This document shows, one piece after another, positions 3,541-46,497 of a stretch of 64,000 nucleotides of DNA (position 1 is the first letter of the stretch; each line of letters begins with the position of its first letter). This stretch comes from Candidatus Paceibacter sp. GTDB taxonomy: Bacteria > Patescibacteriota > Patescibacteriia > Magasanikbacterales > UBA922. The position numbers were made by a program, and so were the translations under genes. The stretch spans positions 2,190 to 66,189 of the forward strand of contig DYFM01000006.1 of the NCBI GenBank assembly GCA_020725175.1, written 5' to 3'. Under the pieces are notes generated by a model, which saw nothing but the letters and a program-made list of their open reading frames with translations, searched no databases and was not told where the DNA came from.

Positions 3541-3684
3541 AACAGCGAAATGACGAAATAAAGAAATAAGGTAATAGTTATGAAAGTACAATTACTAGAA
3601 CATACAATGAACATTTAATCTGTTTCGTTATTTCGTTATTTCGTTATTTCGTTATTTCGTTATTTCGTTGTTTCTTTATTTCGA
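3541..3684. repeat. Inverted pair of octamer arrays: GAAATAA-type units (3541-3570) versus a (C)GTTATTTC x6 tandem array (3621-3684)
   Basis: Direct 8-nt tandem repeats readable in the sequence; the same architecture recurs at 5501-5660, 18340-18420, 24028-24065 and 39641-39735. Confidence 0.6.
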
Positions 3685-7161: not shown

Positions 7162-7163
7162 AT

Positions 7164-7559
7164 AGACAATTGAGAATAAGCCGAATTTTGTATCCCAAAA
7201 TAATTGGGAGGTAATCATTTCTCTTGCTCTACCATTACTGATAGAGTCATAAACGAGCCAACTTTCCATCCCGACAAGTCGGGACGCTGCTCTTTCTCCA
7301 GGTAGGGTTTACCATCCCGACTGAGTCGGGAAGCATTGTCGCCTTTTATCTAGAACAAAAGACATCAATGCACTTTTCACCTTTCTCCCGACAATGTCGG
7401 GATAGTATTGTCTCTGTGGCACTGTCCCGTTCTATACCTTACGGTATAGAAGGTGGGTGTTACCCACTACCCTTTTCCTCAGTGTTAAACACCAAGAGGA
7501 GTTCGGACTTTCCTCACCACCCCTCGAAAGAGGTGGAGCGATTACCATGTCAATTGTCT
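7164..7559 (-). ncRNA. rnpB: RNase P RNA (bacterial type), about 396 nt
   Basis: On the minus strand: GAGGAAAGUCCGAACUCC (CR-I) and AAUUCGGCUUAUUC (CR-V). The P4 strands AG(U)CCGAA / UUCGGCU pair with covariation relative to E. coli GG/CC. P1 is formed by AGACAAUUG (5') and CAAUUGUCU (3'); a P3 hairpin CCACCUCUUUCGAGGGGUGG is present. Confidence 0.75.
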
Positions 7560-7571
7560 TGTGCTCAGGAG

Positions 7572-7654
7572 AGGATTTGAACCTCCACAGGGCGAACCCC
7601 GCTACCACCTCAAGGTAGTGCGTCTACCATTCCGCCACCTGAGCATATAATCAC
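7572..7654 (-). tRNA. tRNA-Leu (anticodon GAG), long variable arm
   Basis: Cloverleaf: acceptor GCUCAGG/CCUGAGC, D-arm GCGGAAUGGUAGACGC, anticodon loop UUGAGGU, variable hairpin CGGGGUUCGCCCUG, T-loop UUCAAAU; CCA not encoded. Confidence 0.85.
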
Positions 7655-17969: not shown

Positions 17970-18233
17970 TTACTTTTTCTTATTTTCAATCCATTTCTTT
18001 TTTACAAATGGAAATGTGAGTGTGGAAATAAAAAAACCGAGTGATGGAACGATGGCATTTATCCAAGGACGACCAATATCGACTGAATAAAGAAACAAAA
18101 CAACCACAAAATATGTCAAAACCACAATCAGTACTTTTCTCACCAAACTTGTCTCCCAAGCCTTTTCAGCTTCGACCCGAGTATTTCTTGCCTCAATCTT
18201 ACTAATTCGTTGTGCCAGTTCTTCACTTATCAT
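17970..18233 (-). CDS. Small hypothetical membrane protein
   Basis: 87-aa ORF with one or two hydrophobic helices and a Lys-rich C-terminus. Confidence 0.35.
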   Translation of the reverse strand: MISEELAQRISKIEARNTRVEAEKAWETSLVRKVLIVVLTYFVVVLFLYSVDIGRPWINAIVPSLGFFISTLTFPFVKKKWIENKKK

Positions 18234-18288
18234 ATGGATACAGTTTACTGTTATTTAGCGAAAAAATCAAGCGTTACTGATAATTACT

Positions 18289-18469
18289 TTACGGATTACG
18301 GATAATACGGAGTGACGGATATTGTGTTGATTTAGAAAAAGTGAAATAAAGAAATAACAAAACAATTGACTATGAACAATTTACAACTATCTATTGTTTC
18401 GTTATTTCTTTTTTTCAGTCAAAGTATCCGTACCTCCGTATTATCCGTAATCCGTAACATATCCGTAAT
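18289..18469. repeat. Composite palindrome built from TACGGAT heptad arrays. Arms TTACGGATTACGGATAATACGGAG (left) and CTCCGTATTATCCGTAATCCGTAA (right) enclose a GAAATAA / TTATTTC inverted core
   Basis: Near-perfect inverted repeat of about 30 nt with a nested inner inverted repeat, readable directly in the sequence. Confidence 0.6.
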
Positions 18470-18672
18470 ACAAACAAAATACCCGCCTCTGAGGGCGAGC
18501 TTCATGTATTTCAATGAAAATACCGCGTCCTCAGGAGGAAACAAACACGACCACCACGCGGCGATATGCATTTGAGCGAGCATTATTCATATGTACCTAT
18601 CTAACCAAATTCATCTTCTTCTGTCAATGAAAATTATTGTACTTATCCCCAACCGTCAAACAAATTTACCCT

Positions 18673-18700
18673 TGACGACAAGTAGATTCCTCCTTATACT
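18673..18700 (+). promoter_or_regulatory. Sigma70-like promoter: TTGACG, 16-nt spacer, TATACT
   Basis: Near-consensus -35 and -10 hexamers immediately upstream of the GC-rich structured region. Confidence 0.55.
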
Positions 18701-18706
18701 GATTGC

Positions 18707-19055
18707 GGCTCGTGAACTGCCTTGAGACACTATTGTTTCGGCAGCAGTGTTGGACCGAACGACTGAGTGGAACCTAACCACTTAGGACAGTCGGCCCAAC
18801 CTCGTCCACCCGGTGCACGTCGTACCGATGCGGACATTTCTCGGGTCGAAAAAGGAGAAAACCATGTGTATTATCATGGTTTTCCTCTACTACGCCCTCA
18901 AGGGGCGTTAGTGGAGGCACGGACCAGCAGCGGAGGTTCGCCGGCAACGGCAGAACCTCCGCTGTCACGGTCCGTGAAGCGGACTTTTATTTCTAAAAGT
19001 ACGCAAGGATACCTTCATCATTTGAGAAATCCGCACTAGCGGTTTTTTGCTTTAT
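18707..19055 (+). ncRNA. Highly structured GC-rich ncRNA of about 350 nt, class unknown; ends in a hairpin plus T-run terminator (CCGCACTAGCGGTTTTTT)
   Basis: Consensus promoter upstream and terminator downstream. Multiple long perfect hairpins (ACGGACCAGCAGCGGAGGUUC-GCCG-GCAA-CGGC-AG-GAACCUCCGCUG..GGUCCGU; GGAAAACCAUG-ugUAUUAu-CAUGGUUUUCC). GC content far above the local background; no credible ORF. Confidence 0.5.
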
Positions 19056-19215
19056 AGAGAGAAAAATTATCCACATTTTGCATATTTCTCTCAGTTGACA
19101 GAAACCTGACTACATGATACACTCTGTTATCCCCTAGAAGAACTGTGGGATAATTTTGCTAAAAAAACATATTTTTTCTTTTGCTTGTCTTAGAACGAAA
19201 CGGTAAACAACCACC

Positions 19216-20367
19216 ATGGCCCTCACACAGATCCAGCAAATTCACCAACTTTTGGAAGACAAAAAACACGTACTTATCACCTTCCGATCGCAATACAGTA
19301 GTGACTCGGTAGCGAGCGCATTGGCTTTGGCATTGTTTTTGAAAAAAATCGGGAAACGAGTTGATATAGTCTCCGATCAGTTTTCTCTTCCGAAACAGTT
19401 GTCCTTTCTCAAACAAAGCGAGGTTATTCAATCACGGTTTCGTCATTTACAAAAATTTATTGTAACGATTGATGTTGCCAAAACCGGACTCAATGAATTG
19501 AGTTATGATGTAAAGGATGAAAAACTTCGAATTTTTATCACCCCGAAAGAAGGCTTTCTCACGCGCGACCAGATTCGAACAGCACAAACCGATTTCAAAT
19601 ATGACATGATCATGGTTATCGATTCGCCGGATCTTTCCTCTCTTGGCTCACTGTATGAAAACAACAGTGATCTCTTTTTCCAACTCCCAATTCTCAATAT
19701 TGATCACGCCCCGCACAATGAACAGTTTGGTCACATCAACATCGTTGATATTACCAAAGTGTCTACTGCCGAGGTAGTCTATGAACTACTAAACCAACTG
19801 GGCGCGGAGTATATTGATGAACCGATTGCCACTGCGCTTTTGACCGGCATGATCGCCAACACTCGCAGCTTTAAAACTGAGCATGTGAAACCGACAACAC
19901 TTACCACTGCCAGTAAACTCATGAGTCTGGGAGCAAAACGTGAGTACATTGTGCAACATTTATACCGTACCAAAACCATTGCGACACTCAAACTTTGGGG
20001 GCAGGCCCTGGCTCACCTTACTTCCTATCCAGATCTTTCATTGGTATCCACTTCTATTACCCGGGAAGACTTTTCTCGCTCAGGAGCAACCGAGCATGAT
20101 TTGTATGATATCGTTGATGAGCTCATCGCCAACGCTCCGGAAGCAAAACTTATTCTCCTTCTCCACGAACACGCTCGCCAAGAAAATGGCGCCGAAACCA
20201 TTCACGCCTTTCTCCATACCACCAAAGACTTTGACGCAAAACTTCTCACCCAACCATTTCATCCCGAAGGGGAACGGCAACGCGTAACTTTTACCCTCCA
20301 GAGCACATCTCTCAAAGAAGCAGAAGATAAGATCATAACCACCATACGAGAACAACAAAAACAATAG
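19216..20367 (+). CDS. DHH-family (NrnA-like) phosphoesterase homologue with degenerate catalytic motifs
   Basis: Collinear with NrnA (N-terminal DHH domain plus DHHA1), but DHH is replaced by DHA and the HxxPDGD motif by RSQYSSDS. Confidence 0.6.
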   Translation: MALTQIQQIHQLLEDKKHVLITFRSQYSSDSVASALALALFLKKIGKRVDIVSDQFSLPKQLSFLKQSEVIQSRFRHLQKFIVTIDVAKTGLNELSYDVKDEKLRIFITPKEGFLTRDQIRTAQTDFKYDMIMVIDSPDLSSLGSLYENNSDLFFQLPILNIDHAPHNEQFGHINIVDITKVSTAEVVYELLNQLGAEYIDEPIATALLTGMIANTRSFKTEHVKPTTLTTASKLMSLGAKREYIVQHLYRTKTIATLKLWGQALAHLTSYPDLSLVSTSITREDFSRSGATEHDLYDIVDELIANAPEAKLILLLHEHARQENGAETIHAFLHTTKDFDAKLLTQPFHPEGERQRVTFTLQSTSLKEAEDKIITTIREQQKQ

Positions 20368-20395: not shown

Positions 20396-21979
20396 CTACA
20401 CCAGACTCCTCCCAGTCATTTCTAGCGGCTGTTCAATGCCGAGAATCTTAAGCATGGTAGGTGCGACATCGGCGAGCATGCCAACCGGAGGAAGTAAACT
20501 CAAATCGCCGTTTGGCGGATCTCCCGACGGTCCGGCCTGTCCATGAAACTGCTCACCTATGATATACAATGGAACAAGATTTGTACTATGTTCTTTATCC
20601 ATTTCCGTGGTTTGTAGATTCACGACTTCTTCCGCATTCCCATGATCTGCGGTAATAAGAAGCACTCCACCTTTAGCAAGGACATGAGCCGCAATGTCAC
20701 CCAAACAGGTATCGACTGTTTCACAGCCACGAATTGTTGCTTCCAAATTGCCGGTATGTCCCACCATATCTCCATTGGCAAAGTTGATCAAAATAGTATC
20801 ATATTGTTCTGCATCAATGGCTTTCACCACATCTTTAGCTATCTCCCGCGCAGACATTTCCGGTGCTTGGTCATAAGAAGCAACTTTTGGAGACGGAATA
20901 ATTTTTCGCTCTTCTCCCGGAAAGGGATCCTCTATCGTTCCATTTAGGAAAAAAGTGATATGCGCGTACTTTTCTGTTTCCGCTACATGGTACTGCGTTA
21001 AACCTTCTTTACTAATTACTTCCGCCAAACTGTTATGAATGATGACCGGCGGAAATGCTACCGTAACCGGAATTTCTTTTTCATACTCTGTCATTGCCAC
21101 AAAATTTAGATCATTGATATATGTTCGTTCAAATTTGGTAAACGCCGGGAGCACAAAAGCCTGAGTGATTTCTCGTGCTCGATCAGCTCGAAAATTAAAA
21201 AAGATTAACGCATCTCCTGACTCTACCGTAGCTACTGGCTTTTCTTTTGTCCCAATAACTGTTGGAACAAATTCTTCATCATATATTTTTTTTTCGTAAG
21301 AGGCCTCAATCGCCGTAATCGGATCTGTAGCATAGTCTTTGGCAATACCCTCCGCAATCGCTCGATACGCAGCCTCCACCCGATCCCAACGATTATCACG
21401 ATCCATTGCCCAATATCTTCCCATCAAAGAAGCTATTTTCCCCACTCCTAATTCTTTCATCTTTTCTTGTAACTGCTCAATAAATCCTTTTCCGCCGTTG
21501 TACAGTGCATCGCGTCCATCCATCATAGCGTGGACATACACCTCTTTCAAGCCATGTTTTGCGGCCAGTTCTAGGAGTGCAAAACAATGACTATCACTGG
21601 CATGGATATTCCCCGGACTCACCAGTCCCATGATATGAAGTTTGGACTTATTCTTTTTCACTTGTTCAACTGCTTGCAAAAATGCGGCGTTTTCAAAAAA
21701 AGAACCATCATCAATCGCTTTATTGATACGTGGAAACGTCTGATAATAAATTCTACCCGCACCTATGTTTAAATGTCCCACCTCTGAATTACCCATTTCT
21801 CCAAACGCCAGTCCAACTTCATTCCCGGACGCACGAATCGCCATAACTGGATACTCACGAGCGAATCGATCCAAGTTTGGTGTTTTTGCTTTGGTAATCG
21901 CGTTTCCGTCACCATCAGGTGCGATGCCCCAGCCATCGAGAATGGCAAGCACTACCGGACAAGGTCTTGACTTATTCAT
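20396..21979 (-). CDS. gpmI: 2,3-bisphosphoglycerate-independent phosphoglycerate mutase
   Basis: VVLAILDGWG N-terminus, metal-binding Ser region, ADHGN C-terminal motif; 527 aa. Confidence 0.9.
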   Translation of the reverse strand: MNKSRPCPVVLAILDGWGIAPDGDGNAITKAKTPNLDRFAREYPVMAIRASGNEVGLAFGEMGNSEVGHLNIGAGRIYYQTFPRINKAIDDGSFFENAAFLQAVEQVKKNKSKLHIMGLVSPGNIHASDSHCFALLELAAKHGLKEVYVHAMMDGRDALYNGGKGFIEQLQEKMKELGVGKIASLMGRYWAMDRDNRWDRVEAAYRAIAEGIAKDYATDPITAIEASYEKKIYDEEFVPTVIGTKEKPVATVESGDALIFFNFRADRAREITQAFVLPAFTKFERTYINDLNFVAMTEYEKEIPVTVAFPPVIIHNSLAEVISKEGLTQYHVAETEKYAHITFFLNGTIEDPFPGEERKIIPSPKVASYDQAPEMSAREIAKDVVKAIDAEQYDTILINFANGDMVGHTGNLEATIRGCETVDTCLGDIAAHVLAKGGVLLITADHGNAEEVVNLQTTEMDKEHSTNLVPLYIIGEQFHGQAGPSGDPPNGDLSLLPPVGMLADVAPTMLKILGIEQPLEMTGRSLV

Positions 21980-22016
21980 ATTGGATAAAGAATAAAAACA
22001 AAAAGTAGTTCAGAAA

Positions 22017-22140
22017 TCCCAAGACACAAGAAACAAGATACAAACAAATTTCAAATATCAAATGACAATTTCTCAAATGTATTGGGATTTTGATATTGTC
22101 TATTGAGCTTTGTTTGGAAATTGTACCTTGTGTCTTGGGA
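22017..22140. repeat. Intergenic inverted repeat (TCCCAAGACACAAG ... CTTGTGTCTTGGGA) enclosing about 95 nt
   Basis: 14-bp perfect inverted repeat between the two gpmI paralogs. Confidence 0.4.
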
Positions 22141-22141
22141 T

Positions 22142-23722
22142 TTACAATAATGATGTTCCAGTCATTTCTTTTGGTTTTGGAATGTGTAGTAATTTTAAAA
22201 TAGTCGGTGCCACATCAGCCAACCGTCCATTTTTTCTAAGTAGCTTCTTTGGCAGATTATTTGAAATTAAAATAAACGGTACTGGATTGGTCGTATGTTC
22301 TGTCATCATCTCGCCGGTTTTTTCATCAATCATTTGTTCCGCGTTTCCGTGATCAGCAGTAATACACACTTGTCCATTTTGCTTCAGTACCGCTTGTACT
22401 AATCGATCAACTTCTTTATCAAGAATATGAACTGCTTTTTTTGCGGCCTGGAAATTTCCAGTATGCCCAACCATGTCAGCGTTTGGGAGGTTCACGACAA
22501 TAAAATCATACGTACCTTTTGAAAAATAGCCAATTATTTTTCGCGTCACTTCTTTCGTCATCATTTGCGGAAGATCAGCATACGTATAGTGTCCAGAAGA
22601 ACGAATAAGTTCTCGATCTTCACCATTGATAGGGTCCGCAAAACCGCCATTGATAAAGTAAGTCACATGCGCATACTTTTCTGTTTCTGAAATGTACAAC
22701 TGTTTTCTGGTTTCACCAATTGCCTTGGCAAGACACATCTGAATATCCGGACTCGGAAAGGCGGTCAACACTCGAGACAGATCCGGTCCAAAATCTGACA
22801 TAGCCACAAAACAGATGTTTCGAAGCACCTTTTTTCGTTTGAATGATCCGGGATTTAATTTGTTAAATGCCGGCTGGACAAAGGCTTTTGTCAACTGTCG
22901 CGCTCGATCACTCCGTGCGTTGAAAAAAATTACCGCATCACCTTCATCCACCATAGCCAATGGTTTTCCGTTTTTTTGTATGACAGTTGGGTGAAGATAT
23001 TCATCGGTTTCATTTCTATTATACCCTTGTTCAATAGCCTCTTCAGCACTTACAGCCTTATGTTCTGCTTTTCCTCTTACAATTGCATCATACGCCATTT
23101 CGGTACGGTGCCACAACTTGTTTCGATCCATAGCATAAAATCTCCCCATGATTGATGCTATGCGTACTCGTGGTGTGAGTTGTTTTTGCAGTTGTTTCAA
23201 ATATTTAATCGCTGAGTGTGGAGAAGAATCACGTCCATCCGTAAAAAGATGTACATACACGTGCTTAACCCGCCTCAGTTCGCAATAACGAAGTAATGCG
23301 TACAAATGCTCAGGATGTGCGTGTGCACTATCACCGTCAGTCAAGAGCCCCATAACATGAACCGCACCACGATGTTTTTTTGCATGTCGAACCGCTTGTT
23401 CAAATGATGGATTGTTGAAAAATGTTTTGTTTTTAATTGCCTCAGAAATTCGAACCAAATCCTGCTCGACAATTCTCCCAGCCCCAATATTGAAATGCCC
23501 GGCTTCAGAGTTTCCTTCTTGCCCCACGAACAGTCCCACGTCTTTACCGTGTGCCTTGAGGGTTGTACTAGGATATTTTTTCATATACGCAAATATGTGC
23601 GGTACTGTTTCCGGCGTGATGGCATTTCCCGGTTTCTTCGGATCAGCAAGTCCAAATCCATCAAGAATAATCAGAAGAGTAGGGGGAATTTTTTGACTTG
23701 TTTTTGGGAATTTTGTGACCAT
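22142..23722 (-). CDS. Second iPGM-family paralog (phosphoglycerate mutase or related phosphopentomutase-like metalloenzyme)
   Basis: LLIILDGFG, GHFNIGAG, ADHGN motifs. Start set at MVTKFPK; the upstream ORF extension runs into GC-rich repeat B. Confidence 0.8.
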   Translation of the reverse strand: MVTKFPKTSQKIPPTLLIILDGFGLADPKKPGNAITPETVPHIFAYMKKYPSTTLKAHGKDVGLFVGQEGNSEAGHFNIGAGRIVEQDLVRISEAIKNKTFFNNPSFEQAVRHAKKHRGAVHVMGLLTDGDSAHAHPEHLYALLRYCELRRVKHVYVHLFTDGRDSSPHSAIKYLKQLQKQLTPRVRIASIMGRFYAMDRNKLWHRTEMAYDAIVRGKAEHKAVSAEEAIEQGYNRNETDEYLHPTVIQKNGKPLAMVDEGDAVIFFNARSDRARQLTKAFVQPAFNKLNPGSFKRKKVLRNICFVAMSDFGPDLSRVLTAFPSPDIQMCLAKAIGETRKQLYISETEKYAHVTYFINGGFADPINGEDRELIRSSGHYTYADLPQMMTKEVTRKIIGYFSKGTYDFIVVNLPNADMVGHTGNFQAAKKAVHILDKEVDRLVQAVLKQNGQVCITADHGNAEQMIDEKTGEMMTEHTTNPVPFILISNNLPKKLLRKNGRLADVAPTILKLLHIPKPKEMTGTSLL

Positions 23723-23829
23723 AGTACAAATACTATAGCGTAAAATGGGAGATAAATCAACCATAAAAAAGTGCTGTACAACACTTTTTATATTCAGAAA
23801 CACAGATAATCCCTCTCGATTCAATGAAT

Positions 23830-23985
23830 GTCCCCGCAGCACGTGTCCGCCTGGGGTGGAAGCTGACGGGGTATCGCTATAGGTAGTTTTTCCCGATCAA
23901 ATCGGGAGAGAATAAAACCCTCGTCCGCCTTGCTTTGCACGCCTTGCTTGTCCGCCTTGGGTGGGGGCTGTGGGCGGATTAAACA
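23830..23985. repeat. GC-rich dispersed repeat, copy B (full length)
   Basis: Aligns with copy A over about 150 nt; the internal hairpin is changed with compensation (CCCGATcaaATCGGG versus CCGTAGCaaGCTACGG); terminal GGCGGATTAAAC. Confidence 0.6.
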
Positions 23986-46421: not shown

Positions 46422-46494
46422 GGGCCTGTAGCTCAGGGGTTAGAGCACAACGCTTATAACGTTGGGGTCGGTGGTTCAAAACCACCCAGGCCCA
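46422..46494 (+). tRNA. tRNA-Ile with anticodon UAU (Ile-type body, reads AUA)
   Basis: GGGCCUGUAGCUCAGG...GGUGGUUCAAAACCACCCAGGCCCA closely resembles the bacterial tRNA-Ile(GAU) body; anticodon loop CUUAUAA; extended -10 (TGCTATACT) upstream. Confidence 0.75.
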
Positions 46495-46497
46495 CAT

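Follow-up and report, generated by a model that had tools for sequence, protein, structure and literature searches.

The window, by which we mean the whole 64-kb stretch of DNA that was analysed, carries a predicted RNA of ~345 nt (roughly 18706-19048, plus strand), hereafter the large RNA, which we hold with about 90% confidence to be a real RNA gene of a new family. The family is new and its kind is familiar, namely a lineage-specific structured RNA, possibly with a dual function, and we present it as a candidate, not as a discovery. The preliminary description had proposed a highly structured transcript that runs from promoter to terminator and does not code for the 90-aa open reading frame (ORF) found there, and our data support this view. 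Judged by the DHH-family protein encoded next to the large RNA (19216-20367), the window belongs to Candidatus Magasanikbacteria, Candidate Phyla Radiation, and its assembly is GCA_020724605.1. Housekeeping genes make up the surroundings. One flank encodes ArgRS, TyrRS, a histidine-kinase-like protein, ValS and an 87-aa membrane protein, and the other the DHH/NrnA-like protein, two iPGM paralogues, enolase, SIMPL and PGK. The vicinity of the large RNA is free of genes for reverse transcriptases, Cas proteins and integrases and of phage genes. A literature search found nothing on such an RNA in Magasanikbacteria or Patescibacteria. The coordinates of the features are collected in Table 1.

Table 1. 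Features of the large RNA locus and of related loci (positions refer to the window unless a locus is named).
Feature	Position	Strand	Properties
Divergent element	18474..18627	-	promoter TTGACA 18627..18622, 17-nt spacer, TTAGAT 18604..18599
Sigma-70-type promoter	18672..18700	+	TTGACG 18672-18677, 17-nt spacer, TATACT 18695-18700; score 10/12
5' domain, four-way junction	18706..18848	+	helices common to both single-sequence folds and to RNAalifold on the MAFFT alignment
P1	18706-18712 with 18842-18848	+	CGGCUCG/CGGGUCG
P2/P2a	18717-18744	+	
P3/P3a	18749-18800	+	
P4/P4a	18804-18835	+	
90-aa ORF	18767-19039	+	GTG start without ribosome-binding site
Purine-rich linker	18849..18857	+	Shine-Dalgarno-like AAGGAG at 18852-18857
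Hairpin A	18857..18884	+	10 bp, GAAAACCAUG/CAUGGUUUUC; sequesters the mini-ORF AUG
Mini-ORF	18864..18911	+	MCIIMVFLYYALKGR; 15 codons plus UAG, AUG 6 nt after AAGGAG
Hairpin B	18885..18916	+	14 bp with one bulge; contains the mini-ORF stop codon
Hairpin C	18918..18976	+	25 bp (8+13+4), GCAA tetraloop; -48.6 kcal/mol
T1, terminator-like hairpin	18969-18985	+	followed by UUUUAUUU
Hairpin D	18979..19004	+	5' strand CGGAC, two alternative partners
Anti-Shine-Dalgarno-like CCUUC	19012..19016	+	closes the 3' five-way junction
Terminator T2	19031..19048	+	CCGC-ACUA-GCGG, then U6
DHH gene's own promoter	19095-19123		downstream of T2; conserved across Magasanikbacteria
Tandem cofactor-independent phosphoglycerate mutase paralogues	20396-23842	-	527 and 566 aa; arrangement kept in L078 and other Magasanikbacteria
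Spacer examples in relatives (valS-DHH, L007-L090)	L041 1911-2240, L042 2134-2376, L088 2116-2717		
AAGGAGGA(A)AGGAGGG sites	L014 544-558, L028 2363-2377, L030 696-709, L041 2178-2190, L042 2394-2407, L046 2377-2390, L049 2361-2374, L086 2905-2918, L088 2942-2954		

Identical copies of the large RNA are present in six public contigs, and the one diverged homologue that was found is in L078 (Logan SRR32675155), a sister Candidatus Magasanikbacteria species; the source habitat of both sister species is groundwater. The L078 DHH protein is 78% identical to that of the window by BLASTP (77% in a global alignment), and the RNA region is ~69% identical. Searches with blastn and nhmmer across 71 DHH-gene loci, mostly from Magasanikbacteria and with DHH identities of <=62%, returned nothing. 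A covariance model of the 5' domain (R1), run on 75 sources, mostly related loci, and on five further loci from the four next-closest DHH proteins, matched only the window and L078, and an exact-pattern search of the relatives' loci gave no trace of the large RNA. The large RNA is absent from the valS-DHH locus in about 75 other Magasanikbacteria, a statement that is limited to that locus. An exact-pattern search of JGI metagenomes with the P3 helix yielded seven matches, all by chance (GC-rich repeats, a collagen-like coding region and two soil contigs), and neither scans of viral contigs nor blastn searches of phages and plasmids found the large RNA. The known occurrence, in the window species and L078 only, agrees with the early suggestion of a lineage-specific non-coding RNA.

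The sigma-70-type promoter has the counterpart TTGGCG-17-TATACT in L078. Both of its near-consensus boxes had been recognised at the outset, with a spacer given as 16 nt that is in fact 17 nt. Transcription would start at about 18706 and, to judge from the sequence, the large RNA is probably transcribed. The GC-rich region described downstream of the promoter is there, with a GC content of 0.53-0.56 across 18700-18999 compared with a window average of about 0.41, and so is the short hairpin followed by T6 at the 3' end. The stem of this terminator, T2, is only 4-5 bp long, and 21 nt at the site (GCGGTTTTTTGCTTTATAGAG) are identical in L078. Two DnaA-box-like sites, TTATCCACA at 19067-19075 and TTATCCCCA at 18643-18651, lie respectively just upstream of the DHH promoter and between the two divergent promoters. 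A replication origin, considered for the TTATCCACA sites, was rejected in view of a monotonic GC skew and the lack of any enrichment of the boxes.

The strong structure claimed for 18673-19055 is borne out by folding. The stretch 18704-19052 has a minimum free energy of -170.3 kcal/mol, compared with -108.9 +/- 5.4 kcal/mol in dinucleotide shuffles (z -11.3); the minus strand of the same stretch reaches z -9.7 and the L078 homologue z -12.3. Both species fold as a four-way junction plus a five-way junction. As a neutral baseline, 4-fold degenerate sites in the flanking genes are 34-41% identical between the window and L078 and are essentially saturated. RNAalifold on an unsupervised MAFFT alignment predicted 93 pairs, 18 of them with two-sided changes. 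A hand-registered alignment, which was fitted to the structure, contains 116 pairs, 106 of them comparable (69 unchanged, 9 one-sided, 25 two-sided and 3 unpaired), and this pairing is lost when the 3' partners are slid by 1-3 columns. Paired columns of the 3' domain are 55% identical, yet 61/62 pairs hold in L078; in 2000 permutation trials, 25.7 pairs held on average and never more than 37. The covariation evidence comes from two independent sequences, those of the window and L078, the six other copies being identical. Because these compensatory changes occur in the sole homologue despite saturated synonymous sites, there is a strong case, built on comparison with this one sequence, that the fold of the large RNA is under selection. 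The early reading of the locus gains from this on both counts, the fold changing in a compensatory manner between the window and L078 and the RNA being found in the window species and one sister species.

For the 5' domain, 45 pairs were modelled, one of which is gapped, and all 44 comparable pairs are compatible in both species (39 identical, 4 with one-sided and 1 with two-sided changes relative to L078). Identity is 93% in its paired columns, much as at second codon positions of the flanking glycolytic enzymes, and 70% in its unpaired columns; the nucleotides of the junction and internal loops differ between the species and the helices are invariant. The P3a loop, GAACCUA, is the sole long stretch that is both conserved and accessible in the ensemble, and a seed-target search with it was uninformative. 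Such a compact conserved multi-helix junction, followed by a platform that buries a Shine-Dalgarno site, is what might be expected if the large RNA were a riboswitch or a self-cleaving or other ribozyme, with the four-way junction as its aptamer or catalytic core. Riboswitch aptamers have invariant junction and pocket nucleotides, covarying helices and a regulated ORF downstream. Here the pattern is the opposite of that in known aptamers, the segment that would mask the Shine-Dalgarno site lies 160 nt downstream, outside the aptamer, and a search at E<=10 brought up none of the riboswitch or ribozyme families of Rfam. We consider a riboswitch or ribozyme very improbable.

The 3' domain is reached through the purine-rich linker (AAAAAGGAG in the window, GGAGGAGGAG in L078). 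Its closing helix, AAGG:CCUU, joins 18852-18855 with 19012-19015 and becomes GGAGG:CUUCC in L078, with one two-sided change from A-U to G-C. Hairpin A contains five two-sided compensatory changes relative to L078, and hairpin B, which has 13 bp in L078, is still fully paired there with nearly all of its stem sequence replaced. In hairpin C the base (CACGGACC/GGUCCGUG), an A/CAC internal loop and the GCAA loop are all kept in L078, and the middle and apical stems covary. Two helices of the preliminary description had to be redrawn here. The long helix with the GCAA tetraloop is real and has 25 rather than about 35 bp, and the hairpin given as 11 bp exists as hairpin A with 10 bp, the strand GGAGAAAACCAUG having been misread. 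The 5' strand of hairpin D can alternatively pair with the 3' strand of the hairpin C base to form the terminator-like T1; this type of pairing is also possible in L078, where the U tract is poor.

With regard to coding potential, the 90-aa ORF had been put down to mere readthrough, and this appears correct. What speaks for a 90-aa protein is that gene finders have annotated the ORF in five public contigs. However, its frame is broken by indels in L078, its start codon has no ribosome-binding site to serve it, and in a search of 1.84 billion representative proteins it matched only itself. The 108-aa antisense ORF of L078, used as a protein query, likewise matched only itself. The probability of a 90-aa protein gene is negligible, and selection appears to act on the RNA, not on this ORF. 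The wider statement that there is no convincing ORF holds for the 90-aa frame and fails for the 3' domain, where both species have a Shine-Dalgarno-led mini-ORF of 15-18 codons. The first reading overlooked both this AAGGAG-N6-AUG element and the divergent element on the minus strand (18474-18592).

In L078, GGAG stands 3-6 nt ahead of the AUG of the mini-ORF, which reads MAILIAIFHLVRRNRRTR. The two peptides end in KGR or RTR, have 2/15 residues in common and keep a pattern of hydrophobic residues ahead of a basic tail. Across the equilibrium ensemble, P(unpaired) is 0.00 for the AUG of either species; over the Shine-Dalgarno stretch it averages 0.33 for the window and 0.25 for L078. Nearly every codon of the mini-ORF sits in a helix remodelled by two-sided changes, which argues that RNA structure, not peptide sequence, is selected. 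Shine-Dalgarno sequences precede 3/44 genes in the window, compared with a background of 10%, and 5/58 of the relatives' DHH genes. The valS-DHH spacer of these relatives is a variable hot spot of 130-980 nt that often contains small membrane-protein ORFs with strong Shine-Dalgarno sequences and a hydrophobic stretch followed by a basic tail, and the transcripts of these small ORFs are structured too (z -4.2 to -7.4). Because the genome hardly uses Shine-Dalgarno sequences, yet the small membrane-protein ORFs in the relatives' spacers do, the mini-ORF may matter; both species have its Shine-Dalgarno sequence and AUG, although the genome of the window is poor in Shine-Dalgarno sequences, and the mini-ORF may be the purpose of the transcript, a point against an RNA that acts as RNA.

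The divergent element on the minus strand has a promoter counterpart in L078 (TTGACA-17-TTATAT) and a predicted transcript of ~118 nt (18592..18474), closed by a terminator (18500..18481) and a U tract. The core of the element (18478-18566) shares ~92% identity with L078, where it is non-coding. It is either a small RNA or a leader, possibly attenuating, of the 87-aa gene and the valS operon. T-box leaders have a Stem I with a specifier loop and a T-box antiterminator sequence, and neither the T-box nor any other Rfam model fits the element in 18230-18720 on either strand at E<=10. The element and the large RNA share presence and absence, and this joint occurrence suggests that the two may be linked. 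An AT-rich palindrome at 18289-18457 (38-nt arms, 89% complementary, an inner 28-nt pair and TCCGTAA/TTACGGA repeats) produces spurious matches to plant miRNA models. TCCGTAA/TTACGGA-like units also occur in the valS-DHH spacer of the Magasanikbacteria L007, L034 and L046. An AT-rich tandem array with an 8-nt period is located at 3621-3682 of the window and a long AT-rich intergenic hairpin at 5537-5654 of L078; by the likeness of their AT-rich units, these two and the palindrome may form a family of repetitive extragenic palindromes.

Back-to-back promoters with a conserved small RNA, together with the mini-ORF, raise the question of whether the large RNA is an mRNA, locked against translation, that encodes a tiny membrane-active peptide similar to a type I toxin. 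Its structured 5' UTR, with the Shine-Dalgarno sequence and AUG buried, would keep it silent, and the divergent small RNA would be its regulator, as in tisB/istR-1, zorO/orzO, shoB/ohsC and dinQ/agrB. Type I toxin ORFs are small and hydrophobic, usually 19-60 aa, with a buried ribosome-binding site, and their antitoxin RNAs have extended complementarity to them; the ratio of transcript to ORF length in type I toxin mRNAs is comparable to that of the large RNA. Like these divergent loci, the large RNA is a structured transcript of ~350 nt with a very short hydrophobic ORF, a long 5' UTR and an adjoining divergent small RNA gene. In both species AAGGAG or GGAGG stands 3-6 nt ahead of the AUG, both elements are sequestered, the peptides are hydrophobic with a basic tail, and the Shine-Dalgarno sequence, rare in this genome and in the relatives' DHH genes, is strong on the small membrane-protein ORFs of the spacer. 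The comparison fails in other respects. Type I pairs have 18-30 nt of complementarity, whereas the longest match between the small RNA and the large RNA is 10-12 nt, half of it G-U, and the duplex energy (-25 kcal/mol) is within the range of shuffles (-19 to -27). No conserved antisense promoter against the large RNA was seen. A peptide of 15-18 aa is too short for a membrane span, and we know of no type I toxin as short as this. Moreover, the peptide is poorly conserved, its codons lie nearly all in helices with two-sided compensation, and the 5' domain is far better conserved than the ORF. No paper was found that joins type I toxin-antitoxin systems with Patescibacteria. We regard a locked toxin-like mRNA as somewhat unlikely.

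The mini-ORF also figures in a second reading, in which the large RNA would act in cis, as a leader or attenuator, on the DHH (NrnA-like) gene that follows it. Ribosomes translating the mini-ORF would open hairpins A and B together with the base of C, which would shift the balance between C-base/D and T1 and so set read-through past the weak T2. The segments CACGGACC, GGUCCGUG, GCGGAC and GUACGC can indeed pair either as 1:2 plus 3:4 or as 2:3 in both species, the 2:3 pairing being followed in the window by UUUUAUUU; moreover, the mini-ORF stop lies 2-7 nt ahead of the hairpin C base in both species, and the T2 stem is only 4-5 bp long. However, the DHH gene has its own conserved promoter downstream of T2, about 75 relatives express DHH without the large RNA, the U tract after T1 is poor in L078, and attenuation leaves the invariant 5' junction unexplained. 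An attenuator is improbable on this evidence. Upstream of the DHH start in relatives, at a distance of 60-140 nt, we observed a conserved purine-rich motif, AAGGAGGA(A)AGGAGGG, located within the loop and 3' strand of a short hairpin. It has no start codon after it and no Rfam match, and may be a cis-regulatory element of the DHH gene.

The large RNA was also compared with known families. At the gathering score, Rfam 15 finds RNase P RNA and two tRNAs in the window and nothing at the large RNA, and nothing at the valS-DHH locus in 20 related loci. At E<=10, the region 18230-19200 gives only noise, in which simple hairpins are hit by miRNA models from plants and animals (mir-4776, for instance, scores 19 bits where the threshold is 97), and the L078 homologue likewise gives only noise at E<=1. 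The large RNA is assigned to no Rfam family in either species, and the second check that had been proposed, a search for a protein-coding frame in homologous loci, found the 90-aa frame broken in L078. ARAGORN, which also detects permuted tmRNA, finds two tRNAs in the window and no tmRNA. RNase P RNA as an identity of the large RNA was rejected, with no class A or B match at the locus and the genome's own copy elsewhere, as had been said, at 7162-7557 on the minus strand (161.9 bits; previously given as 7164-7559). That copy is without part of the P15-P17 region in the Rfam alignment. A tRNA-Leu (GAG) gene lies 4 nt upstream of it on the same strand; the pair spans 7162-7644 (minus) and probably shares one transcript. 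The window also encodes, at 46422-46495 on the plus strand, a tRNA-Ile whose anticodon is UAU. Bacteria normally read AUA with a lysidine-modified CAU tRNA, and a UAU anticodon is unusual.

The large RNA resembles 6S RNA, tmRNA and SRP RNA in its strong promoter, stable-looking fold and length of a few hundred nt, which suits a housekeeping RNA, and the 64-kb window yielded no match to any of them; the preliminary description had accordingly entertained a highly divergent member of one of these families. The defining architectures and motifs are missing. In tmRNA both ends form an acceptor stem and T-arm with CCA, and the tag frame has no Shine-Dalgarno sequence or AUG and encodes an ALAA-like degradation tag. 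The large RNA is without acceptor and T-arm, its 3' end is a terminator, and its sole short ORF opens with a Shine-Dalgarno sequence plus AUG and ends in KGR or RTR. Helix 8 (domain IV) of SRP RNA has a GNRA loop flanked by conserved symmetric and asymmetric loops; in the large RNA the stem beside the GCAA loop has no unpaired position and is not the same in the two species, and no SRP model matches. The absence of the tmRNA and SRP signatures had been noted before and agrees with the lack of an ARAGORN or Rfam match in either species. 6S RNA forms one long irregular helix, whose large central bubble imitates an open promoter. Neither it nor Ms1 fits the large RNA, which has a four-way and a five-way junction in place of a rod with a central bubble and matches no such model at E<=10. 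ARAGORN and Rfam (E<=10, both species) find none of these RNAs, the two multi-helix junctions do not suit them, and the large RNA is missing at the same locus in about 75 relatives; a divergent tmRNA, SRP RNA or 6S RNA is hardly credible.

As for mechanism, we lean, at slightly less than even odds, towards an RNA that acts as RNA, possibly with a dual function, and that has the invariant four-way junction as its core. The 5' junction would be the functional core and would present a surface recognised by a protein or RNA partner, so that the 5' domain would be the active part. The 3' five-way junction would serve as a stable body of freely covarying hairpins, closed by the pairing that resembles Shine-Dalgarno with anti-Shine-Dalgarno, and the full-length fold would bury the AAGGAG and AUG of the hydrophobic 15-18-codon mini-ORF. 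The large RNA would in this case be a riboregulator or an RNP-type RNA, with a mini-ORF that is vestigial or at most conditionally released, compare RNAIII/hld, and translated, if ever, only then. Against a 5' domain as core stands the 70% identity of the unpaired junction columns, a variability that one would hardly expect of a ligand pocket and that points to no particular partner.

Several known RNAs bear comparison with such a riboregulator. The dual-function RNAs S. aureus RNAIII/hld, SgrS/SgrT and SR1/SR1P are likewise large and multi-hairpin, with their own promoter and terminator and a tiny ORF; unlike them, the large RNA has an ORF predicted from sequence, and it has no sequence or structural homology to them. 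The large structured orphan non-coding RNAs known from comparative genomics (raiA motif, OLE, ROOL, GOLLD and HEARO) are similarly stand-alone, GC-rich in an AT-rich genome and built on multi-helix junctions. None of their Rfam models match, however, and the large RNA, known from two species, has a much narrower distribution and is shorter than most of them. A bolder reading, speculative and on the whole doubtful, is that of an undescribed class of structured RNA in Patescibacteria, in which an invariant four-way core, a covarying five-way body and the divergent small RNA would form a two-RNA module. This module would be of RNP or regulatory type with a new partner, or else a toxin-like locked-peptide RNA, the first to be described from the Candidate Phyla Radiation.

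Genomes in this radiation are tiny, with little spare DNA, so that an RNA of 345 nt behind a strong promoter probably serves the lineage in some important way. The locus also brings to light an odd local rule, in which housekeeping genes are without Shine-Dalgarno sequences and small hydrophobic ORFs in the spacer, including the mini-ORF, have strong ones. If the large RNA does belong to a toxin-like or regulatory module, it would offer a first way into RNA-based regulation among bacteria that have not been cultured.
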